A stretch of DNA of 41,144 nucleotides from an uncultured Victivallales bacterium (GTDB lineage Bacteria > Verrucomicrobiota > Kiritimatiellia > UBA8416 > SLMC01), in NCBI GenBank assembly GCA_964646045.1, contig CAZYAW010000105.1:1-41144 (forward strand). Reading direction: 5' to 3'. The notes under the pieces are model-generated. The model was not told the DNA's origin. It searched no databases and saw only the letters and a list, made by a program, of their open reading frames with translations. This document shows positions 14,803 to 35,644 of the stretch, in pieces; positions within the stretch are counted from its first letter, which is position 1; each line of letters starts with the position of its first letter. The position numbers and the translations under genes are program-made.

Positions 14803-14806
<4 letters not shown>
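12926..14806 (-). CDS. lnt: Apolipoprotein N-acyltransferase
   Basis: N-terminal polytopic domain plus a CN-hydrolase domain with triad contexts [10 protein letters not shown] (Glu), [14 protein letters not shown] (Lys) and ALICFEDVF (Cys). The start ATG 14806 overlaps the secA stop (ATGA). The last 35 nt overlap the prfB start. Confidence 0.85.
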
Positions 14807-17865
<3,059 letters not shown>

Positions 17866-17890
17866 GGGGGAATCCTCGTTATAAATGACT

Positions 17891-18619
17891 TCACTTGCCC
17901 AGTTCCAGTCGTTTGGCCAGCCGTTCCGGCAGTCCGACCTTTCTGATCTTGGCCTGGGCGGCGGCGATGTCGTAGGGCAGTCGCCGGAACTCAATGGCGC
18001 GTTTTTCCATGTCGTACAGCACGTAGGAGGCCTGGGGGTTGCCGTCGCGCGGCTGACCGACGCTGCCGACGTTGACGTAGTACTTCATGCCCAGTGTCAG
18101 GCGCATGTTCTGGGGATCGAGTCTGCGCGACCGTCCGCTTTTCTCGAAGATGAGCGGTACATGGGTGTGCCCGTGAAAGCAGACGGAGGTGGACTGGTAG
18201 TTGAAGTGCGAATCGGCCTCCAGAGCGTCGAAGACATAGCCCCATTTTTCGGGCATGTCCAGCGTACTGTGCACCAGCGTAAAGCCGTCCACGCGCAGGT
18301 TGTACTTGAGTCCCTGCAAATAGCGAATCTGCTCGTCGGTCAATTGACGGCGGGTCCAGTCGATGACATTGGCCGCCAGCGGGTGAAAGTCGTCGAGACA
18401 TTCGTCGTGCGCGCAGTAGTGGTCGTGATTGCCGCGCGCCACGCTGCAACCGAGCGCGCGCACTTTTTCCAGACATTCCGCCGGGTTGGCGTTGTAGCCC
18501 ACGATGTCGCCCACGCACACGTAGCCCGTGGCGCCCTGTTGCTCGGCGTCGGCGAGCACCACGGTCAGGGCTTCCAGGTTGCTGTGAATGTCGCCCAGTA
18601 CGGCATACTTCTTTTTCAT
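17891..18619 (-). CDS. Metallophosphoesterase (calcineurin-like, YfcE/MJ0936-type)
   Basis: [14 protein letters not shown]...VCVGDIVGY...RGNHDHY...FHGHTH are the canonical metallophosphoesterase motifs. ATG 18619 is chosen inside the longer track ORF. Confidence 0.8.
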
Positions 18620-19744: not shown

Positions 19745-19933
19745 ATGTTTCGGACGGATTGGGTTGGCCGGGGACTATTCCCGACCGTCGGCGCCGTTGC
19801 GATGACACGACAACTTGCGTGCGTTGGCTCGACTTCGGGAACCCATTGGCGGAGAGGCTGGAACCGGTCTGAACGGCGGACTGCTTCCGAAAAGACGAGC
19901 GGGCCGCACCCCGGCGCCACCACGAGATTATGA
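19745..19933 (+). CDS. Candidate 62-aa small ORF at the head of the envelope operon (speculative)
   Basis: ATG is preceded by GAAGGGGAG at 6-nt spacing, and the stop TGA overlaps the ATG of the next gene (ATGA). Third-position GC looks lower than in neighbouring genes, so coding status is uncertain. Confidence 0.25.
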   Translation: MFRTDWVGRGLFPTVGAVAMTRQLACVGSTSGTHWRRGWNRSERRTASEKTSGPHPGATTRL

Positions 19934-20805
19934 AGGTCGACGACAGCGAATTATGGATCTGGCGGCATTTCGCCGTCCGATTGCCCCGCGACTGGGAGAT
20001 GCTGCAGTTTTCCTGCAACGCTCGCACCGGCCGCTGCGCCTTTGCCGATCGGTATGCGTTTCGTTTCGAGCTGAGCTGGAACCGTGTGCCGGGTCCGCCC
20101 GACGTGGACCGCATGTTGTCCGATTACGCGGCGGAACTCATGCGGGACGGAGAAAGCCGTCCGCGCCGCGTCCGTCGCGCGGAGTGGTATGGTCTTGAAA
20201 TCAGGAACGGTCCCGAGTCCGCATCCCGCTACGGATGTTATATCGGCGATCATGGCTACCTGTTGGAGGCCGTGTTTCCATGGCCGAGTCGCGTGGACCG
20301 GCCTCTGGCGCACGCCGTTCTCGACAGCATACACGTGGAGACCGCGAATGCGGACGGATTCCGGCGCTGGCGCGCTTTCGGCATGGAAGTGCTGGCGCCG
20401 CCGGGGCTGGATCTGCAGTCCTGTCGCGTGTTGCCGGCGCAGGCCGAGATGGTGTTTGCGGACAAGCGGAGCCGACGCGAGTTGCGGGTGGAGCGTCTGG
20501 GCATGGTTTCCGAATGGCTGCGGGGCTCGCCGACCGACTGGGTCAAGAAGACCGCGCCGCCGCATATGGCGGAGGCGCCGGCGTGCGTTACGCAAAGGAA
20601 CGGACACGATATTGTCCGCCTGATCGGCAAATCGCGTGGCCTGCCGGGACGGCGGCGAGCGGTCGACGAACGGTGCGGCTGGCGCTGTCCGGAAAGCGGT
20701 CGTCTGTTCGGGCTGAGCGTAAAGGGCATGCCGGCGCCGTCGCCATCGCGGACGGCCTGGGCGGACTGCGTGGGTTGTTGCGCGGTCCGGAGCGCGGCGT
20801 TATGA
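19930..20805 (+). CDS. Hypothetical soluble protein with an internal tandem duplication
   Basis: 291 aa with no TM segments. The two halves share a W..F...L.P......S......FAD+....EL...R pattern (aa ~8-50 versus ~146-190). Its stop overlaps the next start (ATGA). Confidence 0.6.
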   Translation: MKVDDSELWIWRHFAVRLPRDWEMLQFSCNARTGRCAFADRYAFRFELSWNRVPGPPDVDRMLSDYAAELMRDGESRPRRVRRAEWYGLEIRNGPESASRYGCYIGDHGYLLEAVFPWPSRVDRPLAHAVLDSIHVETANADGFRRWRAFGMEVLAPPGLDLQSCRVLPAQAEMVFADKRSRRELRVERLGMVSEWLRGSPTDWVKKTAPPHMAEAPACVTQRNGHDIVRLIGKSRGLPGRRRAVDERCGWRCPESGRLFGLSVKGMPAPSPSRTAWADCVGCCAVRSAAL

Positions 20806-21185
20806 CGCGACCGGCGCAGCGCATGCAGGCCGACTGGCGTCGGATGCTGGACGCCGCGCCGCTCCGCAACCGCGCGGCGGCCGTGAAAACCGACGGCAAC
20901 GGCGAGCGGAGCATAACGGTGCCGCGCGAGCGGCCGTGGTGGCTGCGCATACCGCTCGTGGGGTGGGCCGTGGCCGTGGGGGAGAAACGTACGTTGAGAC
21001 TGGATCGGCTCGGTAGCGAAGTGTGGGACCTTTGCGACGGCCAACGGACGGTCGAGGGGATTGTCGATGATTTTGCGCAACGTCACCGCCTGACATTTCA
21101 CGAGGCTCGGGCGGCGGTGACGGTATACTTGAAGACGCTGGTTCAGCGCGGCGCGCTGGCGCTCGAGATGCCGGAGGAAAATTGA
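20802..21185 (+). CDS. PqqD-family (RiPP-recognition-element-like) small protein
   Basis: The C-terminal ~70 aa (LDRLGSEVWDLCDGQRTVEGIVDDFAQRHRLTFHEARAAVTVYLKTLVQRGALAL) match the PqqD winged-helix pattern. It is coupled at both ends by 4-nt overlaps. Confidence 0.7.
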   Translation: MTRPAQRMQADWRRMLDAAPLRNRAAAVKTDGNGERSITVPRERPWWLRIPLVGWAVAVGEKRTLRLDRLGSEVWDLCDGQRTVEGIVDDFAQRHRLTFHEARAAVTVYLKTLVQRGALALEMPEEN

Positions 21186-22669
21186 GCAAAGCTCCAATTC
21201 AGATTGCCGATCAGCCGCGGCTGTCGCTGCGGCGTATCGCCCATATCACGATGGACGGCATTCGCTATCGCGTATTCCGGTGCGCCGTGACGGTGGCGGT
21301 CATCGCCGTTGCCGTCGCCTTTCTGAACAACATCGTGAGCGAGAGCATCGTGAGACGGTCGGTAGGGACCGTTGCCCGACTGCGGCTGCGGCAGGGACGT
21401 CAGGTTCACGAATGGGCGGCACGGCTCACTGCGGCGGGAACGTCGGCCGACCTCCTAAAAGAGGTGGCCGACAGCCGGCCGGGCGATCGCGTCTATCGCG
21501 AGTGCGCCGGCTTTGGACGGTTCGGCGCCGCGGCGATGGCGTCTTTCCACCGCGCGGCCCGCACGGCCGTCGGCTATCTCTCCTTCTTCGAAGACCTGGA
21601 CTACGATCTGCGACGCCGACTGGTGCATACGGATCCCGGTGCGGCCGTTCTCGATCGCCTGGCGACGCCGTCCGGCATGGAGCGCTTCCGCCGCGCCCTG
21701 AACGAGATCAGGGCCGTTCGCTTCGTGTCGTCGCTCGACGCGTTGCAGCAGTTTCTGGACGAACGGTGGCTGCCGTTGAGGCAGGACGCGGAGCGTATTC
21801 TCGCGGGCCGGCGCGCGGCGATTCAGGACGTTGCTCGCGCACGGGCCGGGGTTTCCGTTATCGAGTCTCTCTCGCGCGCGGACGGCGCGTTCGGCGATAC
21901 GATCCGGGGGGCCGGATTCGAGTTCGACTCCGAACGGGTGGCCCCGGCCGTGGCGCGACAGGCCCGCGACCTGCTGGCCATGCGCCGCGTGGAGCAGACG
22001 ATCGAAGCCCAGAGCGTGCGCCGGCTGCTTTCGCGCGACGCCAGAGTCGCCCCGTCGGACGTCACGACCGTGCATCTGTGGCGTTTTCTGCGCAATCGCG
22101 CCCATGCGCGCGCGCTGCTGGCGGAAGAGGCCGAGAGCGTGTCGTCGCTCAAAAAAGTCCTGGAAGAGGACGACCTGGTCGCGCTCTCGGATCGGCGCAG
22201 AGAGGAGCGCGCGCTGACGCGTATCGGACGCGATACCGCCGGTGTCGGAACCGGCTGGCTCGGCATGGGAGAGCGCATCGGGTGGCTGATCGCCGTTTCG
22301 ATGCTGGTGTGCGGAATCGGTATTGCCAATGCCATGCTGGTGAGCGTGACGGAGCGTTTTCGCGAGATCGCCACCCTGAAGTGTCTGGGGGCACTGGACG
22401 GATTCATCCTGCTGCTGTTTGTGATGGAAAGCTGTCTGCTCGGCCTTGCGGGCGGCTTGCTGGGGGCGTTTCTGGGCAGTCTGATCGGCGCAGGCCGGGC
22501 GCTCTGGGAATTCGGTTTCTTTTTGCCGGGCGGCCTGCCGATCGGCGATCTTCTTCTGGGAATGGCTCTGTCGGTCGGCGCGGGAATGGCGCTGGCCGCT
22601 CTGGCCGCGGTATATCCGGCGTTCAAGGCCTCGCGCCTGGCGCCCATGGAGGCCATGCGCATTGACTGA
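21182..22669 (+). CDS. FtsX-family (MacB/LolCE-type) ABC permease with an atypical ~320-aa helical loop domain
   Basis: TM1 is at aa ~34-52. The C-terminal FtsX module reads IANAMLVSVTERFREIATLKCLGA...AAVYPAFKASRLAPMEAMR. The TTG start overlaps the upstream stop, and ATG 21251 is an alternative. Confidence 0.8.
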   Translation: MSKAPIQIADQPRLSLRRIAHITMDGIRYRVFRCAVTVAVIAVAVAFLNNIVSESIVRRSVGTVARLRLRQGRQVHEWAARLTAAGTSADLLKEVADSRPGDRVYRECAGFGRFGAAAMASFHRAARTAVGYLSFFEDLDYDLRRRLVHTDPGAAVLDRLATPSGMERFRRALNEIRAVRFVSSLDALQQFLDERWLPLRQDAERILAGRRAAIQDVARARAGVSVIESLSRADGAFGDTIRGAGFEFDSERVAPAVARQARDLLAMRRVEQTIEAQSVRRLLSRDARVAPSDVTTVHLWRFLRNRAHARALLAEEAESVSSLKKVLEEDDLVALSDRRREERALTRIGRDTAGVGTGWLGMGERIGWLIAVSMLVCGIGIANAMLVSVTERFREIATLKCLGALDGFILLLFVMESCLLGLAGGLLGAFLGSLIGAGRALWEFGFFLPGGLPIGDLLLGMALSVGAGMALAALAAVYPAFKASRLAPMEAMRID

Positions 22670-23414
22670 AACGACGACCATGGAACGCATCATCGTGCGA
22701 ACGATCGATCTCAAGAAGGAGTACGTCATGAAGGGCGTGCTCACGCCCGCTTTGCGCGGGGTGGATCTGGAGATCGCGACGGGCGAGTTCATGGCCGTGA
22801 TGGGACCGTCGGGTTCGGGCAAGAGCACGTTCTTCAACATGATCGGCGCGCTGGATCGGCCGACATCGGGTCGCGTGTTCATCGACGAGGTCGACGTGGC
22901 TCAGCTCACGGCCGAGGAACTGGCCTACGTTCGCTGTCAGAAGATCGGCTACATCTTTCAGACGTACAATCTGATCCCCTACATGACGGCGATCGAGAAC
23001 GTCTCCATCCCCATGGCTTTCGGCGGCGTACCGCCCGACGACGCGCGCGACCGCGGCATGGCGCTGCTGGACCTCGTCGGTCTCAAGGAGCGCTGGTTTC
23101 ATCGTCCGATCGAAATGTCGGGCGGTCAGCAGCAGCGTGTGGCGATCGCCCGTTCCCTGGCCAACGAACCGACCGTTCTGCTGTGCGACGAACCAACGGC
23201 AAACCTGGATCTTGCGACGGGCCGGGAGATTCTGGACATTCTCCAGCGCCTGAACACCGAGCGCGGCGTCACGATTGTCTGCGCCACGCACGATCATCGC
23301 GTCATGAAGATCTGCGACCGTTTGCTGTGGATTCGGGACGGCCGCGTTTCACGACTGGCCAAGCGGAGCGAATTGCGCATTGAGGCCGGATCCATCGGGG
23401 GGGTGGCGGAATGA
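22662..23414 (+). CDS. ABC transporter ATP-binding protein (MacB/LolD/FtsE-type), copy 1
   Basis: [51 protein letters not shown] 22662 is preceded by GGAGG at 9 nt, and ATG 22680 is an alternative. Confidence 0.88.
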   Translation: MTETTTMERIIVRTIDLKKEYVMKGVLTPALRGVDLEIATGEFMAVMGPSGSGKSTFFNMIGALDRPTSGRVFIDEVDVAQLTAEELAYVRCQKIGYIFQTYNLIPYMTAIENVSIPMAFGGVPPDDARDRGMALLDLVGLKERWFHRPIEMSGGQQQRVAIARSLANEPTVLLCDEPTANLDLATGREILDILQRLNTERGVTIVCATHDHRVMKICDRLLWIRDGRVSRLAKRSELRIEAGSIGGVAE

Positions 23415-26400
23415 TGGCAACAGGGAACATCCGGCCGGCGGGGTCGTTCGCCGGCGCGATGCTCGCGGGCCTTCTGTGTCTGGCGGCCGCCGACGCGCGC
23501 GGCGAGCGTTTTCTCGACGACTGCCGCGCTCTGACCGCCGCGCCGCATCGCTTGACGGGCACGGAAGAAGGTCGGGCGGCCGGCGACTACATCCGGGGCC
23601 GCCTGGAGGAGGCGGGGGTGGACCGTGTCCTGGTACAGCCGTTTGCGGTGCCGCAGTGGCGGGTCGAACAATGTTCGCTGACGATGGACGGCGAAGCCGG
23701 AGCGCTGTCGCTGCATCCGTTGCGGGCCAATGGCATTGTGCCCCCCGTGACGCCGCCCGAGGGCCTCGCCGGTCCCGTTGTGCATGCGGGGAACGGATCG
23801 GCGGCCGCCGTGGCGGGCAAGAATTTGCGGGGCTCCATCGTGGTGATGGACTACGACTGCGAAGAGGCGTGGCTGCACGTTTTCCGTCAGGGCGCGGCGG
23901 CCGTCGTATTCGTGCGCGCCGGACCCGCTCGCGCTCAGCAGCGGCTGCATGTGCTGGCCAACGCCAATCTGCCGCGCTTCTTTTACGACGGAGCGGCGTC
24001 GGACCTGACCGAAGGCGGGCGCGCCACCATTCACAGCCGCATTGTTTGGGAGAACAGCGTGGGGCGCAATATTGTCGGCTGGGTGCGCGGCTCCGCGCCG
24101 GAGTTCGGGCAGGACGCGGAAGAAGCGCTCGTGCTGGCCGTTCCGTACGACAGTTTCGGCGAAGTGCCCGGGCGCAGTCCCGGCGCGCGCGGGGCCGCCA
24201 ACTGCGCCGCGCTTCTGCGCCTGGCCGGTCGTCTGTCGGCGCAGCGACCCCGACGGCACGTGCTGCTGCTTTTCCTGGACGGACAGGCCCGCTACCATGC
24301 CGGGGCCCGGGCGTTGGTCCGCGCGTTGGAACCGGTCGACAGCGCCGCCGGTCTGCCGGCGCGTCAGGGCTGGTATCGCAGCGAAGTGGAATTTCTTGAC
24401 GAGATGGAACGGCTGCTCGCGCTCGCGCATCCTTTTCGCGAAAGTTCCGACGCGCGTCGCTCTCTGCTGCAGTCCCTCTCGACTCGGGCCAAGGAACAGG
24501 CCACACTGGTCGCGGACGCCATGTACCGACTGCGTGAAGAAAAGAGAGATTTACGGAACCGGGAGGGAGACGGCGCCGGGGCGGGGGAGGCGGTCCGGGA
24601 TCGCCTGACGCGGATCGACACATTGCTGGCAGAGACATGGCAGCCGCAGCGGGACGCCTGGAGCAACGTTCAGCGCGCGCTGGGTCGGAGCCGACAGGGG
24701 CGCGCCCGCGACGAGACCGGCTCTCTTTCGGCGGCCGAGCAGGCCCTGTTGGACGGGATCGTGCAGGACCAGCGCGCGGAGATCGGCGCTCGTCGGGCCG
24801 AACTCGCGATTACCGGCCGGAACCTGGCGGCCGATGCCGAGATACAGGAACTGCTCGGGAAGCGCGCGATCGTGCTGTATGCCTCTCTTTTGCTGGGAGA
24901 CCGCTCGCCCGCATGGGGCCTGGCCATCGGCGGCGACTCCGGATTGCACTCGGAAAACGATCATCCGGGACTGTACGGACAGATACAGGCCGTCTTCCTG
25001 GAGGCCTTCCAGCGTCTCGCCGCCGCCGACGCTGCGGCGTCGGGATTTGTCCGCCAATCCGCCGACCAGTCTCTCGATCGTACCCGCATGATGTGGGGGG
25101 CGCCCTACATGGTTCATGGCGGCGAGGTGGCGGGTTTGCTGGGCGTCTACAATGTGGCGCTGGTCACGTGCGGAGAGAATATGGAGCGCGAGGGTACCCC
25201 GGACGATGTCCTGGAGGCTCTCGACATCGCGCGGCTGCGGGCGCAGGCGGACGATATCGGGCGCCTGCTCTTCGGCGGCGCGGGGACGCATGCCGTGGCT
25301 AGTCAGGAGCGCCTCTCGCTGCGGCGCGGCGTCAATCCCAGCGCGGGATACAGCCTGGCGCGTTTTGAAAACGGTCGCGTGGTCGGTCCGCGGGTCATGG
25401 GCGCGCTGCCGGGCAGCGCCATGCCCAACCAGCCCGTCCCCGGCGCCATGCTGCAGGTCTTCGCCACGCCGCCGGCCAGTCTGACCTTCCAGACCGCCCA
25501 CCCCTATGCCTTTGAGAATTTCATGGTGTTGCGGACGGATCAGCGCGGGGCGTACAGTCTGGGGCCGCTGGCGGCGCAGCCCTCGCACTTGCGCAACAGA
25601 CTGCGCGCCGTGACCCTCGCCTTCGATGCGCAGGGGGTTCTCGCGTCCGCTTCCGGGCTCAACGAGGAAATCGGGCGCGTCTGGTACCGGATGAACACGT
25701 TCTATTGCCAGTCCGGCGAACAGATTCTGCCGGTCCAGTCGGAAACGCGCCGCCGGTCGAGCGGGGACATCCTCCTGATGTCGGCGCGCAACAACGTCAA
25801 CATCGATCCCGCGCGACATTTCGTCGAAGCCCTGGACGGCGTGGTCGGCTGGTTCTGCGACGACCGGGAGAAGGGGATCAAGCTGTTCGGGTTGTCCCGC
25901 ATGGTCGCGCTGAACAACGGTCCGGCGACCCTGGCTTCCGACCGGCGCGAAACGAACGAAGAAGCCCTGCGGCAAGCCGCCGGAACCGGTTTCCCGCAGG
26001 ACGCGGACTGGCGCGACATTCAGCCGTCCGTCCGCTCCGCAGCGGATTTGTGGCGTTTGAACGACGCGCGGATCGGATTGCTGCGCAGTCGGCAAATCCG
26101 CGACCGCTCCCTGGCCGAACTGCATGCGCGCAGCGAAGACCTCCTGTTGGGCGCGGCGGCGACGACGGATCCGGGGCGTCGCACGGCGCTCGCCGCCGGC
26201 AGCTTTCTGTCGTCCGCGCCGGTGTACAGGGCGACCCGCAAGACGCTGGACGATCTGGTCTTCGCGGTGCTCCTGCTGCTGGGACTCTCCGTGCCCTTCG
26301 CCTTTGCCATGGAACGGGTGCTGGTGGGGGCGCGCACGATCTACCGGCAGATCGTCTGGTTCGGATTGTTTTTCCTGGCCACCTTCACTTTGCTTTATCT

Positions 26401-28312
26401 CGCGCACCCGGCCTTCGCCGTGGCCAATACGCCCATGATCATCTTCCTGGGTTTCACCATTGTCGTGATGTCGGCGCTGGTCATCGGCGTCATCATGCGC
26501 AAGTTCGAGGCGGAACTGCGCGCTCTGCAGGGGTTGTCGTCCAGCGCGCACAGCGCCGACGTGTCCCGGGTGACGACCTTTCTGGCCGCCATGCAGATGG
26601 GGATTTCCACCATGCGGCGGCGTCCTCTGCGTACGGCCCTGACCGCCACCACGGTGACTCTCCTGACGTTTACGATTCTTTGTTTTGCCTCTTTCGCGAC
26701 CCAATTGGGCATTGTCCGTTTTTTCGTCGGGTCGTCTCCGTCGTATGAAGCGGTCTGGATTCGCAGCGCCAGTTGGCAGCCGATCAGCCGGGATTTTGCG
26801 GTCATGCTGCGCGACCGGTGGAACGCCGCAGTCGTTGCGGAACGGTACTGGCTGTCTCCGCGCAACGAGGAACGCGCGGGCGTTCTGCTAACGCGCGAGG
26901 ACGGCACAAGGCCCCTGGCCCTGCGCGGCGTGCTCGGCCTGGATCCGCGCGAAATCGGCCGACGCAAAGATCTGGCCGAGATCTTCGATACGAACCTGGT
27001 CGGACGCGTACTCCTGACCGACACGGTGGCGCACGCGCTGGGCGTACGCGAAGGCGATACGGTGCTGGCGGGCGGTGAACGGCTTGTCGTCGGCCGCCCG
27101 TTCGATCCGGTCAAGGCGTCGGTGGTCGTGGATATGGACGACAGCAGCGTGCTGCCGGTCGATTTTCTTGCCGCCTCGTCCTCGTCCGCACAGGCCGCGC
27201 AAAGCGACGAAAGCGACATGGACGAAACGACGGCCGATTCCAATTGGTCCAATTTGTCTCCGGATTTCGTATTGGTAGTGGACACGGCGACCGCCCGGCG
27301 ACTCGGCGCCGCACTGCAGGCCGTGACGATGTATGCCGAGGGCGAAGCGCAGGCGGCGGAGATGGCCGACGACATCGCGCGCATGGCGACCTTCCCGGTG
27401 GCCGTTACCCTGCGCAACGGCGTCTATCGACAGCGCCTCGGCGTGATGCTGGCGGCCAGCGGCGCCAAGGACCTCTTTTTCCCCATTCTGCTGGGCGGGC
27501 TCGTCGTGTTCGGCACCATGTTGGCGTCCGTCGCCGACCGCGAGCGCGAGATTTACACGTTCAGTTCGCTGGGTCTGGCGCCGCGGCACGTCGCTTCGCT
27601 GTTTTTCTCCGAAGCCACGGTCTACGCCGTGATCGGCGGGATGGGCGGATACCTGATCGCCCAGGCCATGTTGAAAATCCTGACGATTCTGTCCGATCAC
27701 GGCCTGGCCAGGGTGCCGGAAATGAACATGTCTTCGACCAATACCATTGTCACGATTCTGATTGTCATGGCCACGGTTCTGGTTTCCGCCGTCTATCCCG
27801 GGATCAAGGCGTCGCGGTCGGCGAATCCCGGCCTCATGCGTTCCTGGCGTCTGCCCGAGTTGCGGGGCGACGAACTGGAATTCGTCTTTCCCTTCACGGT
27901 CTCGCAGTACGACATTACGGGCGTGGTCAGTTTTCTCCGGGAGCACTTTCAGAACCACGCCGACACGGGCATGGGCCGCTTCATGGCCGAGCATCTCCGC
28001 ATTACGCGCTCGTCCGAGGGCGAATTGGGCTTCGCCGCGGACGTTATGCTGGCGCCGTTCGATCTGGGGGTCGGTCAGTCGTTTGCGCTGACAAGCATTC
28101 CGAGCGGCATTCCCGGCATCGACGAGGTTCGGCTGGTCTTGCGCCGCCGATCCGGACAGCCGCGCGACTGGCATCGCCTCAACAAGGCTTTCATGAACGA
28201 TCTGCGCCGGCAGTTTCTGCTGTGGCGATCCTTGCCGCGCGAAACCATGGATCTGTATCGGCAGCAGACGCTGCAGGAACTGGGAGCAATGAGGACGGCG
28301 TCCGTTTCTTGA
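23411..28312 (+). CDS. 1633-aa fusion: signal/anchor, PA plus degenerate M28 peptidase-like ectodomain, unknown ectodomain, 3 TM, FtsX-type permease module, C-terminal cytosolic domain
   Basis: ATGA-coupled to the upstream ATPase.
- N-terminus: hydrophobic AMLAGLLCLAAADA.
- PA-like segment: GSIVVMDYDCEEAWLHVFRQGAAAVVFV.
- M28-like core: NIVGWVRG...VLAVPYDS...PGARGAANC...LLLFLDGQARYHAG.
- Three TM segments at aa ~948-1030.
- FtsX module: MRRRPLRTALTATTVTLLTFTIL, a ~250-aa loop, then ADREREIYTFSSLGLAP...VSAVYPGIKASRSANPG. Confidence 0.85.
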   Translation: MMATGNIRPAGSFAGAMLAGLLCLAAADARGERFLDDCRALTAAPHRLTGTEEGRAAGDYIRGRLEEAGVDRVLVQPFAVPQWRVEQCSLTMDGEAGALSLHPLRANGIVPPVTPPEGLAGPVVHAGNGSAAAVAGKNLRGSIVVMDYDCEEAWLHVFRQGAAAVVFVRAGPARAQQRLHVLANANLPRFFYDGAASDLTEGGRATIHSRIVWENSVGRNIVGWVRGSAPEFGQDAEEALVLAVPYDSFGEVPGRSPGARGAANCAALLRLAGRLSAQRPRRHVLLLFLDGQARYHAGARALVRALEPVDSAAGLPARQGWYRSEVEFLDEMERLLALAHPFRESSDARRSLLQSLSTRAKEQATLVADAMYRLREEKRDLRNREGDGAGAGEAVRDRLTRIDTLLAETWQPQRDAWSNVQRALGRSRQGRARDETGSLSAAEQALLDGIVQDQRAEIGARRAELAITGRNLAADAEIQELLGKRAIVLYASLLLGDRSPAWGLAIGGDSGLHSENDHPGLYGQIQAVFLEAFQRLAAADAAASGFVRQSADQSLDRTRMMWGAPYMVHGGEVAGLLGVYNVALVTCGENMEREGTPDDVLEALDIARLRAQADDIGRLLFGGAGTHAVASQERLSLRRGVNPSAGYSLARFENGRVVGPRVMGALPGSAMPNQPVPGAMLQVFATPPASLTFQTAHPYAFENFMVLRTDQRGAYSLGPLAAQPSHLRNRLRAVTLAFDAQGVLASASGLNEEIGRVWYRMNTFYCQSGEQILPVQSETRRRSSGDILLMSARNNVNIDPARHFVEALDGVVGWFCDDREKGIKLFGLSRMVALNNGPATLASDRRETNEEALRQAAGTGFPQDADWRDIQPSVRSAADLWRLNDARIGLLRSRQIRDRSLAELHARSEDLLLGAAATTDPGRRTALAAGSFLSSAPVYRATRKTLDDLVFAVLLLLGLSVPFAFAMERVLVGARTIYRQIVWFGLFFLATFTLLYLAHPAFAVANTPMIIFLGFTIVVMSALVIGVIMRKFEAELRALQGLSSSAHSADVSRVTTFLAAMQMGISTMRRRPLRTALTATTVTLLTFTILCFASFATQLGIVRFFVGSSPSYEAVWIRSASWQPISRDFAVMLRDRWNAAVVAERYWLSPRNEERAGVLLTREDGTRPLALRGVLGLDPREIGRRKDLAEIFDTNLVGRVLLTDTVAHALGVREGDTVLAGGERLVVGRPFDPVKASVVVDMDDSSVLPVDFLAASSSSAQAAQSDESDMDETTADSNWSNLSPDFVLVVDTATARRLGAALQAVTMYAEGEAQAAEMADDIARMATFPVAVTLRNGVYRQRLGVMLAASGAKDLFFPILLGGLVVFGTMLASVADREREIYTFSSLGLAPRHVASLFFSEATVYAVIGGMGGYLIAQAMLKILTILSDHGLARVPEMNMSSTNTIVTILIVMATVLVSAVYPGIKASRSANPGLMRSWRLPELRGDELEFVFPFTVSQYDITGVVSFLREHFQNHADTGMGRFMAEHLRITRSSEGELGFAADVMLAPFDLGVGQSFALTSIPSGIPGIDEVRLVLRRRSGQPRDWHRLNKAFMNDLRRQFLLWRSLPRETMDLYRQQTLQELGAMRTASVS

Positions 28313-28358: not shown

Positions 28359-30389
28359 ATGTCACGCAACCAACGACACGACATCGACAAGGAACTGCAG
28401 ACGTTTCGGGACGCGATGCAGGTGCCTTCCACCTTCGAGGAGGGTTTCCGCTGGTCCTCGCTGCTGGGAGCGCTGTTCGTGGCGCTGGTCATGGTGCCCG
28501 GAGCGATCTACATGGGATTGCTGGCCGGGGTCGGCATCGGTCCGGCGGCCCAATGGGTCACGGTGATCCTTTTTATCGAAGTCGCGCGCCGCGCGCACCG
28601 ACACCTCTCCAAGTCCGAGATCTTCGTCCTCTACTTCATGGCCGGGGCCATGATGACCGGTCTCGGGATCGGCGTGGACGGCGGACGCATGAACGGCTTG
28701 CTCTGGCGGCAGTATTTTGCCGTCAGCGACGCGGCCCGCTCCTCCGGCATCACCGAGCAATTGCCGGCATGGTACGCGCCGAGTCCCGAATCGGATTCCT
28801 ATGCCCTTCGTTCGTTCCTGCATCCCGCGTGGATGGCGCCGATCGGCCTGCTCGTCTTCGGCACTTTTTTCGGCCAACTGGCCAACCTCGTACTGGGCTA
28901 TGGTCTCTTTCGCGTGACGAGCGACATCGAAAAATTGCCCTTCCCGATGGCGCCGGTGGGGGCTCAGGGCATCCTGGCGGTGGCCGAAGACGTCGAGGAG
29001 AGAACGCGCAAGGACAGCGAACGCTCCTGGCGCTGGCGCGTGTTCGGCATCGGCGGAGCGCTGGGTCTGGTTTTCGGGGCGGTCTACCTGCTTCTGCCGA
29101 CGCTGACGGGCGCCCTGACGACGGCGTCCGTCCAGATCTTCCCCATACCGTTCTCCGATTTCACGCATCAGACCGGGCATTACCTGCCGGCGGTCGCGAC
29201 CGGCATCTCCTGGGATTTCGGGCATCTCGTTTTCGGCATGGTCATGCCTTTCTTCGGCATGCTGGGCAGTTTCATCGGCTTGCTCGTCACGGTGGTGGCC
29301 AACCCCGTCCTGTACGAGGTCGGGTTGCTCAACTCGTGGACCTCGGGGGACGACACCGTCTGGACCATCTTCAAGAACAACGTCGATTTCTACTTCAGCT
29401 TCCAGATCGGCATCGGGCTCGCCATCGCGCTGGTCGGCGTCTATCAGGTCCTGCGGAGCATCCGCCGCGCGAAGGCGAAGAAGAGAGCGGGGAGCATCAT
29501 GGCGCCGCCGCCGGGGCGCGGCGACATCCGGGGAATCTTCGTGGTCCTGTGCTACTTCGTTGTGACCGCCATCTATATCTCGGCGTCTCTGGCTCTGCTC
29601 GTGTGGGACGAGGGGGAGTGGAACGACAACGTCCAGCGGGTTTTCTACGTGCTGCTGGGGCTCGGCCTGGTCTATACGCCGTTGATCAGCTACGTCACGG
29701 CGCGCCTCGAGGGCATGGTCGGCCAGGTGGTGGAAATCCCCATGATCCGCGAGGGGGCCATGATTCTGAGCGGCTACCGCGGCGTGGCCTGCTGGTTCCT
29801 GCCGCTGCCGGTCGCCAACTACGGCCACATGACCGTCTTCTACCGGCAGTGCGAGCTTACCGGCACGAAGTTCACCAGTATCTGGAAGACGAAAGTGATC
29901 CTGTATCCGATCATCCTGATCAGCTCCATCATGTTCATGAACTTCATCTGGAAACTCGACCAGATTCCTTCGTCCGCCTATCCCTATGCCCAGAAGATGT
30001 GGAAACTGCAGGCCGCCAACGAGTGCATTATGCTGTCCTCGACGCTGGGCGACTACTCCATGTTCGAGGAGGCCTTCAACTGGATGTATCTGGGCGCGGG
30101 CACGGTCTTCGGCGGCCTGCTTTTCGGACTGTTGAGCGCGTGCGGGGCGCCGGTCATGCTGGTTTACGGGATTGTGCGCGGTCTGGGACAAAGCATGCCC
30201 CACGCGATCATCCCCCAGTTCATCGGGGCGCTGATCGGACGGTTCTATTTCCAAAAACGGCTCGGTCTGAAATGGCGACAGTATATTCCGGTCGTGGCCG
30301 CGGGATTCTCCTGCGGCATGGGCCTGATTACCACGTTGGGGGTCGGGATCACGTTCCTGAGCAAGGCCGTGATCAAGCTGCCCTTCTGA
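28359..30389 (+). CDS. 676-aa polytopic membrane protein, distantly OPT-superfamily-like
   Basis: At least 14 hydrophobic segments. An EKLPFP motif (aa 191-196) and the C-terminal FIGALIGRFY...YIPVVAAGFSCGMG resemble OPT-type motifs and the two paralogs downstream. GAGGGA lies upstream of the ATG. Confidence 0.7.
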   Translation: MSRNQRHDIDKELQTFRDAMQVPSTFEEGFRWSSLLGALFVALVMVPGAIYMGLLAGVGIGPAAQWVTVILFIEVARRAHRHLSKSEIFVLYFMAGAMMTGLGIGVDGGRMNGLLWRQYFAVSDAARSSGITEQLPAWYAPSPESDSYALRSFLHPAWMAPIGLLVFGTFFGQLANLVLGYGLFRVTSDIEKLPFPMAPVGAQGILAVAEDVEERTRKDSERSWRWRVFGIGGALGLVFGAVYLLLPTLTGALTTASVQIFPIPFSDFTHQTGHYLPAVATGISWDFGHLVFGMVMPFFGMLGSFIGLLVTVVANPVLYEVGLLNSWTSGDDTVWTIFKNNVDFYFSFQIGIGLAIALVGVYQVLRSIRRAKAKKRAGSIMAPPPGRGDIRGIFVVLCYFVVTAIYISASLALLVWDEGEWNDNVQRVFYVLLGLGLVYTPLISYVTARLEGMVGQVVEIPMIREGAMILSGYRGVACWFLPLPVANYGHMTVFYRQCELTGTKFTSIWKTKVILYPIILISSIMFMNFIWKLDQIPSSAYPYAQKMWKLQAANECIMLSSTLGDYSMFEEAFNWMYLGAGTVFGGLLFGLLSACGAPVMLVYGIVRGLGQSMPHAIIPQFIGALIGRFYFQKRLGLKWRQYIPVVAAGFSCGMGLITTLGVGITFLSKAVIKLPF

Positions 30390-30403: not shown

Positions 30404-31135
30404 ATGCAAGACACTCTGGTACAGGTGCGCGATCTGAGCAAGACCTTTCGGCTGCGCGGCGAGGTTTTGCACGCGCTCAAGAACATCGAACTGGATATTT
30501 ACACGGGCGAGTACCTGTCCATCATGGGGCCGTCCGGCTCGGGCAAGAGCACCCTCTTCAACATGATCGGCGGTCTGGACCATCCGTCGGAGGGTTTCGT
30601 CGAGGTGGCCGGAATCCGGCTGGGCGACTTGAGGCCCCGGCAACTGGCGTACTTGCGCGGCAACGAAATCGGCTACGTTTTTCAGTCCTACAACCTGTTG
30701 CCGGCCTACGGGGCGCTGATGAACGTCTGTATGCCGCTGCTCTTCAGCGGACAGACGCCCCAGGCGGCCGAACGCCGGGCCACGGAAGTCCTGGAGCGGG
30801 TCGGGCTGGGCGATCGCATCGACCACCGGCCCGACGAGCTGTCCGGCGGACAGCAGCAGCGCGTGGCCATCGCGCGCGCGCTGGCCAATTCCCCGTCCAT
30901 TATTCTGGCCGACGAACCGACGGCCAATCTCGACCTGGAAACCGGCCGGCAGATCATCGACCTGCTGGCTTCGCTGTCGAGCGAGTTCGGCGTAACCGTT
31001 ATCAGCGCCACGCACGATCACCAGATGCTGGCCGCATCCGACCGCATCCTGTGGATTAAGGACGGCGCCGTGGACCGTCTGGAACGTCGCGAAGATCTGG
31101 ACATCCAGGTCGGAGTGATCGAGGACGAAGTCTAA
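30404..31135 (+). CDS. ABC transporter ATP-binding protein (MacB/LolD/FtsE-type), copy 2
   Basis: [54 protein letters not shown] 30404 lies 14 nt after the upstream stop. The 860-aa track ORF is a shadow upstream of this point. Confidence 0.88.
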
Positions 31136-33567
31136 CCGAGAAACACTTTGTACCGTACGGGCGTCTGGCCCGTGGCCCAGTAGTAGACCGCGCCGCTGGC
31201 CGCGACCAGGATGCCGGCGATCATTTCTCCGGCGATCAGTCCGAAGATCAACGGCTTCATGTTGCGGCATAGCCGCCAGCCCCCGTAGCGTTCCGCCACC
31301 GTCTTGACCAGCGCGCCCGCCAGAAAGGACGCCGACAAGCTCAAGGCGTCGTTGGTGCCCAACACCAGAAACATGAGCGGGTGCAGCGGCCATCCCGGAA
31401 AGCGCCGTCGGCACCAGGTGAAAACGAAGACGAGCGTCATGGCGACGGCAAAGGCCGCGACATATTCGCGGCGCGGCGCCAGGGCGCGCAGACCGCCCAG
31501 TTTCCCGGCCTGCGCGGCGCCCAGTTGTCCCTGCGACGCCAGCAGACGCCGCACCGCCACGTCGTTTTCGTAGGGGGCGGTTGGAACGCGGTCGACGATC
31601 CATTCGTCGCCCGTGCGCATGGTGCCGTAGTTGTACTGCCAGTACAGGGTGGCCGCCGCCGCGACCACCAGAGCGACGCCCACGGCGACGGTGCCGCTCA
31701 ACGCGATTTTGCCGGGCCGCACGCCTTTGCTCTCGCAGAGCCGCAAGGCGCTGAAGGCCAGGCCCATGACCATTTCCCTGTAGGTGATGAGCAGCATCGA
31801 CGACAAAATGCCCATGATCAGCAGGCGGTCCGGTCCGACGGCCTCGGCGCCCAGCAAGCCCCACAGCAGGGCGCCGGTGTACCAGCTCGATTGGGTTGTG
31901 AATACGCCGCCCTCCGCCAGGAGCCGGCTGACTACCGTGGAGATCACGACGGCGCCGGCCGCGTACAGGATGCCCAGCCACAACGGCAGGCCGACCCCGT
32001 GCAGGATCAGGACAAAGGCGGCCAAGCCGACGATAAACACCCGAGATCCCCATATCTCGTGCGGACGAACCTCGTCCATGGCGCGCGTCAGTCCGAGGGC
32101 GCGCGCGAACACGGCGCGCAAATGGCGGTGCGCCGCGGCAAACAGCGCGATAAACATGGCCACGTAGGCGCCCGCGTGCAGGGAGGGCTGAATGCCGGGA
32201 CTGAACGTTCCGTATCCCGCGCTGATGTCGACCCCGTACCGAGTGACCAGAGTGCCGACGACGGCCCAGTAGAGCCAGGGCGCGACGCCGACCGAAAAAG
32301 AGATGTCGCGCGACAGCAGGTAGGCGAACCCGAAGGCCGCAAAACCGATGCGCGGCACGAACAGCCGCTGACCCGGCCCGGAACTCAGAGCCGGGAACAG
32401 ATCCTTCAGGGCTCGCAGGTCGGCATAGGTGCGGACGGGAATCAGCGTGCCGGGCCACCACTCTGCCAGGTAGTTGTTTAGATGGATCGCGAGCACGACG
32501 CCCATGCCCGCCAGAAACCAGCGGGAACGGAGCGTGGCGGGCAGACCGCCCCCTTCGCCGGGCAGGATTTCGGTCAGGAACTGTACCGTCGGGTAGGGGA
32601 GTCGTTCGTGTTCGACCCACTGCCGGTGCAGCACCAGGGCCAGTCCGATCACGGCGATCGACAAGGTCAGGACGAGGGGCATCCAGAACGACCAGGGCCG
32701 TATCCAGGACGAGAAAGGGACGTTTTGCGGCGCAATATTCTCGTTTCCTTCCCGCATGCCGACCACGAAGGGGTCCAGTACGGTCGAGGCGTTTCGGGAA
32801 TCGACATCCGTCAGCATGCGTCGCGGCGCGCTCTCCACGGGTCCCGGGCGTCGCGCTTCGACGGCGCCGCCGGCCAGCAAGTCCAGGACGCCGCGGTTGA
32901 GTCGCACGCGCTCGTCCGGATCGAGGTCCGACAACCGGCGCGCCATGAGTTGCCGCATGTACGAGGGCAGATACATCTTGTCGTGCCGTACGGCGGACTG
33001 CCAGTCGACGGGCTCCCGCAGGAAGGCATTGACCCCCTGGCAGATCCGTCTGCGGTGGTCCTCGCGGTCGGCCCGCTCTTCCGCGTCTTGTTCGAGCGTG
33101 ACGCGCAGTTCGGCGGGCAGATGCTTCCATAACAGTACGGCGGTCGCGCTCGCATCCGGCCGGCGTCCGCGGCCGAGGGTCGCGGTCAGCGCGGCCCAGT
33201 CGCGCACTTGATTCGGCGACAGTTCCGCGGCCGTCCCTTTCCAGGCCGGTCGCAGGCGGGCGTAGTGCTGCGGCATGATCATGATGTTGTTAAAGAAATG
33301 CATCAGACCGCGTCCCGGCACAAAACAAGAAAAGAGGGTGATTCCGGCGGCGACGGCCAATTCCGGCGCCGAGAACGCCAGTCGCCGTTTCAGTCTGGCC
33401 AGCAGGGGATTGAGGATCAGTACGAAGAGCGCCAGCGTTCCGAAGACGGCGAAGGGCGCAAAATTGCCGGTCATCTCGCTGCTCAGCATCACTTTGTCGT
33501 TGAAAAAAGTGAACAGAGCCAGGAACAATGCGCCCGCAAATCCCAGCGTCAGCGATCGCCATGTCAT
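31132..33567 (-). CDS. 811-aa polytopic membrane protein, paralog of 33608-35644 (OPT-like; possibly the DUF6785/DUF6784 type)
   Basis: N-terminal TFFNDKVM, then LVLHRQWVEHERLPYPTVQF, then C-terminal KPLIFGLIAGEMIAGILVA. AGGAG lies 9 nt upstream of the ATG. The DUF names are recalled from memory, not verified. Confidence 0.75.
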   Translation of the reverse strand: MTWRSLTLGFAGALFLALFTFFNDKVMLSSEMTGNFAPFAVFGTLALFVLILNPLLARLKRRLAFSAPELAVAAGITLFSCFVPGRGLMHFFNNIMIMPQHYARLRPAWKGTAAELSPNQVRDWAALTATLGRGRRPDASATAVLLWKHLPAELRVTLEQDAEERADREDHRRRICQGVNAFLREPVDWQSAVRHDKMYLPSYMRQLMARRLSDLDPDERVRLNRGVLDLLAGGAVEARRPGPVESAPRRMLTDVDSRNASTVLDPFVVGMREGNENIAPQNVPFSSWIRPWSFWMPLVLTLSIAVIGLALVLHRQWVEHERLPYPTVQFLTEILPGEGGGLPATLRSRWFLAGMGVVLAIHLNNYLAEWWPGTLIPVRTYADLRALKDLFPALSSGPGQRLFVPRIGFAAFGFAYLLSRDISFSVGVAPWLYWAVVGTLVTRYGVDISAGYGTFSPGIQPSLHAGAYVAMFIALFAAAHRHLRAVFARALGLTRAMDEVRPHEIWGSRVFIVGLAAFVLILHGVGLPLWLGILYAAGAVVISTVVSRLLAEGGVFTTQSSWYTGALLWGLLGAEAVGPDRLLIMGILSSMLLITYREMVMGLAFSALRLCESKGVRPGKIALSGTVAVGVALVVAAAATLYWQYNYGTMRTGDEWIVDRVPTAPYENDVAVRRLLASQGQLGAAQAGKLGGLRALAPRREYVAAFAVAMTLVFVFTWCRRRFPGWPLHPLMFLVLGTNDALSLSASFLAGALVKTVAERYGGWRLCRNMKPLIFGLIAGEMIAGILVAASGAVYYWATGQTPVRYKVFLG

Positions 33568-33607
33568 AGTTTACGACTCCTACATTGCGGATCGGGCGCC
33601 GTTGACG

Positions 33608-35644
33608 CTACGGCGGCAAAACCCAGAAGTTTGTCAGCGTCTCTCCCGTGACGAAAAAGTGAACGGCGCCGATCATGCTGGGAAGAATCGCGCCGAGCAC
33701 TTCGCCCGCGATGAATCCGAACATCAGAGGCTTCAGGCGGTTGACCAGGGCCGAACCGCCGTAACGGTCGACGGCCAGCTTGACCAGCCATCCCAGCAGA
33801 AAGCTCGGAGCCGTGCGCTGGAGCGGAACGGTCGCGCACGTAACCATCAGGATGGGATGCAGGGGCCACCATGGCAAACGGAGTCGCGCCGCCGCGAGTC
33901 CGGCGGCTCCGATCAGACCGATGAACAAGGCCCAGCCACAGGACGGTTCCATCCGTATGCGGCTCACGTTCGACCCGCTCGGCGGTTGCATGGCTTGTTC
34001 CAGCTCGCCGCGGGCCTCGAGCTGCTGCTTGACCGCCGCGGCATTGTTGAGCGCAAAAGTGGGCACGTGCTGTTGCGTCCAAGTGTCCGCGACGGAGCTG
34101 CCCTGATCGTAGTGCAGGTACAGGGTCACGGGCAGGGCGACGGTTACGCAGACCACCAGGGCCACGGCGCACCAGACCGCAACGCGGCCGGGCGCGACGC
34201 GGTGCAGATCGAGCAATTTCCAGTTGTTGACGAGGAACGGCATCAGCGACTCGCGAGGGTCTATGAAGAGGACCGTGGAAACCATCTGAATCGCGACCAG
34301 CGTCGGCAGGCCGATGGCGCCGACGCCGAACAGGCCCCAGAGGGCGGCGCAGGGCCACACGAAAGGCTGCATATAGAACAAGCCGGCTTCGCTGATCAGC
34401 CGCCCCATGACCGTGTACAGAAGCATGAGCAGAAGGACGTACAATACGGCCATCGGCCAGGACACGCCGGCCAAACGGAGCTGCAGCGCCAGGACGAGGC
34501 TCATGACCAGGAACAGCCGGGCTCCCCAGGTTTCGTAAGGGGGAACGTCCGGATGGCCTCCGGGCCGCAAGGCATGGCCGAAAACCTGCCGGTAGTGGTG
34601 GCGCCCGGAATATACCAGCGCCCCGAACAAGCCCAGATTGCCGCCCAGTAGAAGGAACTGTCTCGGCTGGGGCGACAGGTAGTTGCCGGTCCCGATATTC
34701 GAGGTTTCGACCTGAATGCCGTAGGTCAGCAGCGCCCCGACCGCTACGGCGTACAGAAAGGGCCCGATCCCCAGCGAAAACGACACGTCTTTGGGAATCA
34801 TAAACGCGATCGCGACGACCGTAAAATAGAGAACCGGAGACAGCAGTTGCCGTCCCAGATGCGTATCCAGCGCCGGAATCAGTTCGCGGAAGGCCTGCAA
34901 ATTGAATTGGCGCTTAATCTCAATCACGTATTCGGGGAATGTCCCCGCCGCGAAGCGGCTCATATGCACCAGAAAGACGAGCGTCAGACCGGTCCAGAAC
35001 AGCCGGCTGCGCAGGACCGGGCTCCAGCGGCCGCTTTCGTCCGGGAAAAGGCTGTTGGTGAACGCGACGATCGGGTAGGGCAGATGTTCGTGGCGCGACC
35101 ATTGTCGGTGCAGCACGAGCGAAAGGCCGATCACGGCCAGCCACGTCGCCAGGAAAATCGGCAGCCAGAAGGCGACGGCGCGCGTCCACGCGCGCCACGG
35201 CACGTCGCGGAAGGAAATGGCTTCCGGCCCCGTGCGAAGCCCCTGGCGAAAGCCGTCCAGCACGCGGTTTTCGTCTTCCGACACGTCGGCCAGCATCCGG
35301 TCGGGGACCATCTCCATGACCTCCTGGCTGCGCCAGCTCGCATAGATGCGGTTGTAGTGCTGCGGCTGGATGAGCGACGTGCCGAAAGCGCGCATCATGC
35401 TGGAACCGGGAATACAGCAGGCGGCGAGAACGATGGCAAGCGCGACCGCGATTTCGGGACCGCGCAAGGCATGCCGTCCGAGCAGCGGCGCGGCCAGCAC
35501 GTACAGCAGCAGCATCCCGAACACCACGATCGGCATGTTGTTGCCGATCAGATGGGTCTGGTGCATCACATGGTCGTTAAAGAACGTTACGGCGGCGACG
35601 ATCACAACGCCTATTAAACCGAGAATGACGCTTCGCTTTGTCAT
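33608..35644 (-). CDS. 678-aa polytopic membrane protein, paralog of 31132-33567
   Basis: Colinear motifs TFFNDHVM, LVLHRQWSRHEHLPYPIVAF and KPLMFGFIAGEVLGAILPS. It lies 40 nt upstream of its paralog on the same strand. Confidence 0.75.
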   Translation of the reverse strand: MTKRSVILGLIGVVIVAAVTFFNDHVMHQTHLIGNNMPIVVFGMLLLYVLAAPLLGRHALRGPEIAVALAIVLAACCIPGSSMMRAFGTSLIQPQHYNRIYASWRSQEVMEMVPDRMLADVSEDENRVLDGFRQGLRTGPEAISFRDVPWRAWTRAVAFWLPIFLATWLAVIGLSLVLHRQWSRHEHLPYPIVAFTNSLFPDESGRWSPVLRSRLFWTGLTLVFLVHMSRFAAGTFPEYVIEIKRQFNLQAFRELIPALDTHLGRQLLSPVLYFTVVAIAFMIPKDVSFSLGIGPFLYAVAVGALLTYGIQVETSNIGTGNYLSPQPRQFLLLGGNLGLFGALVYSGRHHYRQVFGHALRPGGHPDVPPYETWGARLFLVMSLVLALQLRLAGVSWPMAVLYVLLLMLLYTVMGRLISEAGLFYMQPFVWPCAALWGLFGVGAIGLPTLVAIQMVSTVLFIDPRESLMPFLVNNWKLLDLHRVAPGRVAVWCAVALVVCVTVALPVTLYLHYDQGSSVADTWTQQHVPTFALNNAAAVKQQLEARGELEQAMQPPSGSNVSRIRMEPSCGWALFIGLIGAAGLAAARLRLPWWPLHPILMVTCATVPLQRTAPSFLLGWLVKLAVDRYGGSALVNRLKPLMFGFIAGEVLGAILPSMIGAVHFFVTGETLTNFWVLPP

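Follow-up and report, generated by a model that had tools for sequence, protein, structure and literature searches.

In a 41,144-nucleotide stretch of DNA from an uncultured Victivallales bacterium (contig CAZYAW010000105.1 of assembly GCA_964646045.1; this whole stretch is called the window below), we analyzed an open reading frame (ORF) of 1633 amino acids (aa) that joins an ectodomain resembling an M28 peptidase with a protease-associated (PA) domain to a duplicated FtsX-type permease of type VII among ATP-binding cassette (ABC) systems. Judged from the aligned sequences, the canonical two-zinc active site and the catalytic base are absent from the M28-like head of this protein. Residues ~42-625 are probably a pseudo-peptidase head, that is, a capture or docking module moved by ABC mechanotransmission.

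The third-position GC content (GC3) of the ORF is 0.80, which is typical for real genes of the window. The ORF starts at an ATG that overlaps with the stop of the preceding gene, which encodes ABC ATPase 1. A database search identified full-length homologues of ~1600 aa in 72 clusters, under the names 'M28 family peptidase', 'FtsX-like permease' or 'hypothetical'. The site under study, 24143-24300, corresponds to residues 245-296 of the ORF (translation PYDSFGEVPGRSPGARGAANCAALLRLAGRLSAQRPRRHVLLLFLDGQARYH); ENMEREGTPDDVLEALD is encoded at 25175-25225, and the EREGTPDDV motif comprises residues 592-600. The ORF and its parts, with the transmembrane (TM) segments numbered from the N-terminus and with secondary structure taken from AlphaFold2 (AF2) models, are as follows.

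23411-28312, + strand: the 1633-aa ORF, PA/M28-like ectodomain plus duplicated FtsX-type (type VII ABC) permease (72 full-length homologue clusters).
23435-23491, + strand: TM1 or signal anchor, aa 9-27, the helix running on as a stalk to aa 41 (hydropathy; AF2 helix 10-41).
23534-23701, + strand: M28-like domain, N-terminal segment, aa 42-97, containing the motif PHRLxGT (HMMER alignments, AF2).
23702-24085, + strand: PA domain, aa 98-225, set into the M28 fold (aligns with the PA part of 2EK8 and YwaD; Pfam; Foldseek).
24086-24325, + strand: M28-like core part 1, aa 226-305, with P245, D247, G261, Q292 and A293 (alignments, column counts).
24326-24862, + strand: insertion of four long helices predicted to split the M28 core, aa 306-484 (AF2; conservation; splicing test).
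24863-25285, + strand: M28-like core part 2, aa 485-625, with Y490, D497 and REGTPDD including G595 (alignments, column counts).
25328-26020, + strand: predicted beta-rich ectodomain module, aa 640-870 (AF2 secondary structure).
26171-26494, + strand: stalk helix and TM2-TM4, aa 921-1028, end of the first four-TM module (AF2, hydropathy).
26639-27835, + strand: second FtsX module, comprising TM5, periplasmic domain 2 and TM6-TM8, aa 1077-1475 (Pfam FtsX, 3.6e-11; Foldseek).
27848-28309, + strand: C-terminal cytoplasmic alpha+beta domain, aa 1480-1633, highly conserved (AF2; weak Foldseek matches).

Catalytic and metal-ligand positions were mapped using HMMER alignments to 2EK8, YwaD, 3IIB and nicastrin; the columns were counted in 68 database homologues and cross-checked in 65 orthologues drawn independently from species-representative genomes, which show the same replacement pattern. 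In the numbering of the Vibrio aminopeptidase, we take the ligands to be H97, D117, E152, D179 and H256, and the base to be E151. The equivalent positions in the 1633-aa protein are the following.

His of HxD: P245, in an unconstrained column (Asn in 25, Pro in 11 and His in 10 of 68).
Asp of HxD: D247, retained (Asp in 67/68).
Bridging Asp of PGAxDN: G261 (Gly in 54/68), adjoined by a one-residue deletion.
Asn after the bridging Asp: A262 (Ala in 67/68).
Catalytic Glu, the first of the Glu-Glu pair: Q292 (Gln in 49, Glu in 9 and other residues in 10 of 68).
Ligand Glu, the second of the pair: A293 (Ala in 57/68).
His of YHT: G595 (Gly in 68/68 and 65/65; REGTPDDT vs. yHHTPNDTL).

The initial annotation of this DNA, made from the sequence, had read the ligand His as replaced by Pro at aa 245 (VPYDS) and Asp-Asn as replaced by Gly-Ala at aa 261-262, and the alignments give the identical mapping in both cases. 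The late context EREGTPDDV, which it had likened to YHTxxD, likewise contains the position of the lost His, at the invariant G595. Loss of the Glu-Glu pair was also correctly recognized, with a register (G291-Q292) that was one residue early; the pair maps to Q292-A293 because both glycines of EExGLxGS align with QARGHAGA, and the conclusion is unaffected. An exhaustive homologue search over 1.84 billion representatives yielded 153 proteins with E ≤ 1e-30 and 895 with E ≤ 1e-10. When canonical residues were scored at the five positions 245, 261, 292, 293 and 595, none of the 245 alignable homologues had more than two of the five. The initial annotation had raised the question of whether the degeneracy is shared by homologues, and it is conserved in every homologue examined.

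The residues that replaced the ligands are themselves under strong constraint. The motifs xDSFGEVPxxSPGARGAAN, FxDxQARGHAG, LHxSLLLGD and REGTPDDT are conserved in the family, and SPGARGAAN, FxDxQARGHAG and REGTPDDT constitute the best-conserved part of the head. Positions conserved in at least 90% of sequences are significantly enriched within 5 residues of the ligand equivalents (21/85 vs. 56/611, hypergeometric p = 2.6e-6). Polar positions at this level of conservation near the old site are D247, R260, N264, D290, H490, D497, R593 and D599, and those conserved below it, at 72-85%, are Q292, R294, H296 and E594. Such high conservation of the replacement motifs indicates that purifying selection acts on a remodelled pocket, and it speaks against a relic in decay. 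Most likely, to judge from these sequence patterns, the former active-site loops continue to surround a binding pocket for a ligand or partner protein.

The protein of the window is unusual among its relatives at two positions. Residue 490 (24878-24880) is Tyr where nearly all homologues have His (65/68 and 65/65), and residue 295 (24293-24295) is Tyr where most homologues have Gly. By sequence, then, the 1633-aa protein departs from its own family inside the remodelled pocket, at 490 and 295.

Searches with the single sequence gave borderline evidence for the fold: Pfam PF04389 scored 18 bits, under the cut-off of 21.3, and a phmmer search against PDB matched the PA-containing aminopeptidase 2EK8 at E = 0.0025. 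A family profile built from 58 of the 72 homologue clusters and searched against PDB matched 2EK8 at 5.5e-12 and Bacillus subtilis YwaD/BSAP at 1.5e-9, followed by nicastrin (2e-5), Pseudomonas aeruginosa PaAP (2e-4) and nicalin (0.011). The AF2 model of residues 1-1000 had a mean predicted local distance difference test score of 92.1 and a predicted template modelling score of 0.89, and a Foldseek search with this model matched 2EK8 (1.6e-17), transferrin receptor 1 (TfR1; 4e-14), BSAP, PaAP and GCPII, over a whole range of 1e-17 to 1e-11 and with a probability of 1.0; all Foldseek matches of the head are PA-bearing M28 or TfR proteins. The model accounts for the weakness of the single-sequence searches: in it, the M28 core is interrupted by four long helices, an insertion of 179 residues. 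With the insertion spliced out, PF04389 was matched in 20/20 tested members (best 5.8e-10), and the score of the 1633-aa protein rose to 22.7 bits and thereby passed the cut-off; for more distant members of the family, the scores are 32-46 bits. Residues 98-225 align with the PA insert of 2EK8 and YwaD, and PF02225 (PA) was matched in 4/20 spliced members, with every score under its cut-off. The M28 matches are colinear over ~400 residues, PA insert included, in the profile, spliced and structure-based searches. By sequence profiles and predicted structure, the ectodomain is thus a genuine PA-plus-M28 fold, and the proposal in the initial annotation of an M28-related domain with a PA insert and without canonical ligands is borne out, by the profile, Foldseek and spliced Pfam searches for the fold and by the alignments for the ligands.

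The helical insertion, aa 306-484, was overlooked in that annotation. It sits between the helix that follows the former Glu-Glu position and the next core strand, and its four helices are each up to 42 residues long in the AF2 model. It is the least conserved segment of the head (mean conservation 0.39), yet it is present across the family. From the model, it may be a lever arm or a docking coiled coil. The beta-rich module, aa 640-870, lies between the M28-like head and the stalk; its sequence matched nothing in Pfam or PDB.

Hydropathy and two AF2 models give 8 TM segments for the 1633-aa protein. The ectodomain, aa 42-920, includes the head (42-625) and the beta-rich module (640-870); it is followed by a long predicted helix, 921-972, that runs into TM2, by TM3 (981-999) and TM4 (1010-1028), by a basic cytoplasmic linker and by TM5 (1077-1095), and a second periplasmic domain lies between TM5 and TM6. 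Pfam FtsX (PF02687) was matched in the TM6-TM8 region, at aa 1357-1469, with 43.6 bits vs. a cut-off of 25.5 (E = 3.6e-11), whereas the first half of the permease resembles an FtsX module by topology alone and has no Pfam match. A Foldseek search with the C-terminal model matched LolC (2.8e-9), MacB (6e-8) and YbbP (9e-7), as well as LolE, the pneumococcal Spr0694/5 transporter, HrtB, YtrF and BceB, all between 3e-9 and 1e-6. As this model matches both FtsX-type permeases and the duplicated YbbP, the 1633-aa protein can be described as a fused pseudo-dimer of two FtsX-type modules. In the predicted structure, the M28-like head stands in the place of the first periplasmic domain: it belongs to the loop from TM1 to TM2 in the first half and is carried on stalk helices aa 10-41 and 921-972. 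A capture module driven by the ABC motor, as the initial annotation suggested, fits this anatomy: the head is between TM1 and TM2, it stands on stalks, and LolD-like ATPases are encoded next to it. The coupling itself would follow from that anatomy by analogy.

The C-terminal cytoplasmic domain, aa 1480-1633, contains the conserved motifs FPFTVSxYD, APFDLGV and WRSLP. Foldseek gave weak Bet v1/PR10-like (SRPBCC) matches for it (2FFS, E = 0.054, probability 0.96; also 3LYD), and from these model-based matches the domain could be hydrophobic-ligand-binding or regulatory.

We then weighed a capture or docking role of the head against other explanations of the same observations. The M28 resemblance itself could be a chance likeness in a GC-rich protein that is rich in Ala, Gly and Arg, as the single-sequence Pfam score of 18 bits, under the gathering threshold, might suggest; this is extremely improbable and is refuted by the strong colinear matches in the profile, spliced-sequence and structure-based searches. 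Alternatively, the head could be a passive scaffold or spacer, which serves oligomerization, an envelope-spanning platform or a steric gate, has no pocket ligand and keeps its motifs merely to maintain the fold. Nicastrin is now seen mainly as a steric gatekeeper, the ligand of TfR binds away from the old active site, and the four-helix insertion, together with the beta-rich domain, hints at an extended architecture. However, conservation is centred on the former ligand loops and not on the hydrophobic core, and the conserved polar residues R260, N264, D290, Q292, R294 and H296 are poorly explained by fold maintenance alone, so that we regard a passive scaffold as unlikely.

A hydrolase with a non-canonical site is, in our assessment, more unlikely still. 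Such an enzyme might, for example, hold one metal on D247, D290, H490, D497 or E594, with Q292 (Glu in some members) assisting, and would process peptides at the membrane surface. In its favour, there are several acidic and His residues near the old site that hardly vary, Glu is found at 292 in ~10% of members and Asp at 261 in one subclade, and databases call some members 'M28 family peptidase'. Conversely, four of the five canonical ligands are now Gly, Ala or Pro or are variable, with G595 invariant and A293 nearly so; the ceiling of two canonical residues in the 245 alignable homologues argues in the same direction; the 1633-aa protein has Tyr at the otherwise invariant His490; and no active M28 member with a site of this kind is known to us. 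Several observations nevertheless count against a pseudo-peptidase head driven by an ABC motor. The conserved D247, D290, H490 (Tyr in the 1633-aa protein), D497, E594 and D599 are a conceivable non-canonical metal or catalytic site. The equivalent of the fifth ligand (Vibrio Asp179) was not placed by the spliced-profile PDB search or through P0190, a distant member without a clear helical insertion, as the alignments end short of that strand or skip to the C-terminal TPxDT motif; the nearly invariant D497, directly after the corresponding strand (486-494), may from its position in the sequence be a remnant of this fourth/Asp179 ligand. The subclade with Asp at 261 carries one canonical residue and lacks the remaining ligands. 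Finally, three FtsX-type four-TM modules, one in a neighbouring 495-aa protein and two in the large protein, stand against two different LolD-like ATPase genes.

The subclade with Asp261 (P0114, P0125, P0135, P0140 and others) consists of longer relatives of ~1700-1900 aa with the motif LDSLSEVP...SPGARDAAN. It could represent partial retention or reversion.

The nearest relatives of the head, by profile and predicted structure, are active PA-M28 aminopeptidases: Aneurinibacillus AM-1 (2EK8), B. subtilis YwaD/BSAP (6HC6) and PaAP (8AC7). The head shares with them the colinear fold, the PA domain at the same place and the motif skeletons xDS, PGA, GxxG(S/A) and TPxDT. Whereas the aminopeptidases are active two-zinc enzymes, soluble and secreted, the 1633-aa protein has other residues in place of His, Asp, Glu-Glu and His, the core of its head is split by the 179-residue helical insertion, and the domain is a loop of a membrane permease.

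The initial annotation had likened the head to nicastrin and transferrin receptor, and this likeness holds as an analogy and at the fold and profile level (TfR1 4e-14, nicastrin 2e-5). Like nicastrin, nicalin and transferrin receptor, the 1633-aa protein has an M28-like ectodomain without catalytic residues, which in those proteins is used for binding or gating. In the profile alignment, Q292 lies opposite nicastrin E333, and R294-A299 (RGHAGA) opposite F335-DYIGS340; the nicastrin segment at E333/DYIGS has been proposed as a peptidase-derived substrate-binding site (PMC2647162). In contrast to these eukaryotic, single-pass proteins of gamma-secretase, endoplasmic reticulum and endocytic contexts, the head is bacterial and fused to a polytopic ABC permease, and whereas the helical domain of transferrin receptor is C-terminal, the helices of the head are an internal insertion. 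A specific kinship with nicastrin was rejected, as the active bacterial enzymes score far better (5.5e-12 vs. 2e-5 for nicastrin). Nicastrin-like 'APGAE/D' motifs in distant members were also considered and rejected as a sign of kinship: those members match PF04389 (32-46 bits) and not PF05450, which was matched in only 3/20 spliced members. The head probably lost its active site independently of nicastrin, nicalin and transferrin receptor.

In type VII ABC systems, ATP-driven movement of TM and stalk helices is passed to periplasmic domains without carriage of substrate across the membrane, and two copies of the ATPase are bound by the duplicated YbbP, through which compounds extracted from the membrane are presented to a hydrolase (PMC12646458). 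The 1633-aa protein resembles Escherichia coli YbbAP-TesA and the ADOP-type permeases in being of the internally duplicated FtsX type, in that the first TM in either half is followed by a large periplasmic domain, and in having LolD-like ATPases, and its C-terminal model aligned with YbbP over 936 columns (Foldseek). The differences are also substantial: YbbP has 10 TM segments, vs. 8 in the 1633-aa protein, and two Porter/Sabre domains, and the active hydrolase TesA is recruited in trans, whereas the first periplasmic region of the 1633-aa protein is a PA/M28-like head plus beta domain of ~900 residues; unlike in YbbAP, there is also a C-terminal cytoplasmic domain, and the cluster further encodes a third FtsX module and a second ATPase. 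FtsEX-EnvC offers a precedent, in that an FtsX-type ABC complex drives the conformation of a catalytically dead metallopeptidase-fold (LytM) domain, which has a long coiled coil, and periplasmic events are thereby controlled (PMC7668044, PMC10336132). EnvC, however, has an M23/LytM fold and is a separate protein that activates amidases, whereas here the fold is M28 and the domain is covalently part of the permease. In the literature on DUF6785, on bacterial nicastrin-like or M28 pseudo-peptidases and on FtsX-M28 fusions, we found no description of the family or its gene cluster.

The large gene belongs to a cluster of eight genes, which encode DUF6785/6784, the conserved 291-aa protein, a PqqD-like protein, the 495-aa FtsX protein, ATPase 1, the large permease, an OPT-like protein and ATPase 2. 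Its neighbours in the window are the following.

19930-20805, + strand: 291-aa conserved protein (neighbourhood).
20829-21185, + strand: PqqD-like (peptide-chaperone-type) small protein (profile match).
21182-22669, + strand: 495-aa FtsX-type permease with a loop of ~310 aa between TM1 and TM2 (profile, hydropathy).
22662-23414, + strand: LolD/MacB-type ABC ATPase 1 (LolD match 3.9e-63).
28359-30389, + strand: 676-aa polytopic membrane protein, borderline OPT match (25.3 bits vs. a cut-off of 25.8).
30413-31135, + strand: LolD/MacB-type ABC ATPase 2 (LolD match 1.6e-68).
31132-35644, - strand: two DUF6785+DUF6784 membrane proteins, usually linked to the cluster in other genomes.

Of 80 related loci with enough flanking sequence, essentially all preserve the core arrangement of FtsX, ATPase, large gene, membrane protein and ATPase, in this order. 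The 676-aa membrane protein is always downstream of the large gene in related loci, and the PqqD-like protein, the 291-aa protein and DUF6785 are mostly upstream. Relatives of the large gene are present in at least 292 species-representative genomes, mostly of the Planctomycetes-Verrucomicrobia-Chlamydiae (PVC) group (Lentisphaerota/Victivallales, Kiritimatiellia, Verrucomicrobiota and Planctomycetota); a few come from Sumerlaeia and Fibrobacterota, and one carrier is a cultured strain, Oligosphaera ethanolica DSM 24202.

Within the cluster, we saw no radical S-adenosylmethionine or other peptide-modifying enzyme, no obvious precursor peptide, and no evident amidase or other hydrolase partner. 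The PqqD-like protein is of the recognition-element type of ribosomally synthesized and post-translationally modified peptides and is conserved directly upstream of the transporter genes; in most related loci, it is preceded by the gene for the 291-aa protein, which has no signal peptide and no Pfam, NCBIfam or PDB match. By sequence, the ~310-residue TM1-TM2 loop of the 495-aa protein appears Arg-rich and helix-prone and unlike the Porter/Sabre domains of MacB and LolC. By BLASTP, the 676-aa membrane protein has no detectable similarity to the DUF6785 proteins. Elsewhere in the window, on the - strand, the ORFs for SecA (14803-17994) and the apolipoprotein N-acyltransferase Lnt (12926-15451) overlap by ~650 nucleotides when read from their first possible starts, and the true start of Lnt is probably further downstream; a release factor, IspD and a metallophosphoesterase are further neighbours, and all of these are ordinary housekeeping genes.

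We propose, by analogy with other type VII systems, that the head is the working end of the machine: a capture, docking or gating module with a cleft, a PA lid and a helical insertion that the ATPase cycle would reposition. The LolD-like ATPases that flank the large gene would bind and hydrolyse ATP; the TM and stalk helices would scissor, as in the mechanotransmission of MacB, LolCDE, FtsEX and YbbAP; and the head, with its four-helix insertion and PA lid, would move, capturing, holding or releasing a periplasmic or membrane-surface substrate or switching a partner. We infer the binding function of the head, and its coupling to ATP hydrolysis would follow from the anatomy of the protein and from the behaviour of the type VII ABC family. 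As to the ligand, our guess is a peptide or protein terminus, because of the aminopeptidase ancestry of the head and the weak hint from the PqqD-like and OPT-like neighbours. It is conceivable, as a tentative extension that we hold to be more doubtful than the role of the head itself, that the eight-gene cluster is an undescribed envelope machine, mainly of the PVC group, in which a nicastrin-like dead head, joined covalently to a type VII ABC motor, recognizes free peptide or protein termini or another envelope ligand and mechanically extracts, presents or exports it. Because a cultured carrier exists in O. ethanolica DSM 24202, the hypothesis is testable.

The label 'M28 family peptidase' is misleading for these proteins, as none of the members examined has the canonical catalytic site. 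The 1633-aa family combines two known kinds of protein, the M28 pseudo-peptidase and the type VII ABC mechanotransducer. The known outputs of type VII ABC systems are efflux, lipoprotein extraction, control of cell-wall hydrolases and lipid hydrolysis, and the head would be a new kind of periplasmic working end for these mechanotransducers. M28 pseudo-peptidases, known from eukaryotic nicastrin, nicalin and transferrin receptor, would thereby be extended to bacteria, and the machine, if it works as proposed, would be a bacterial counterpart of the substrate-receptor idea put forward for nicastrin.

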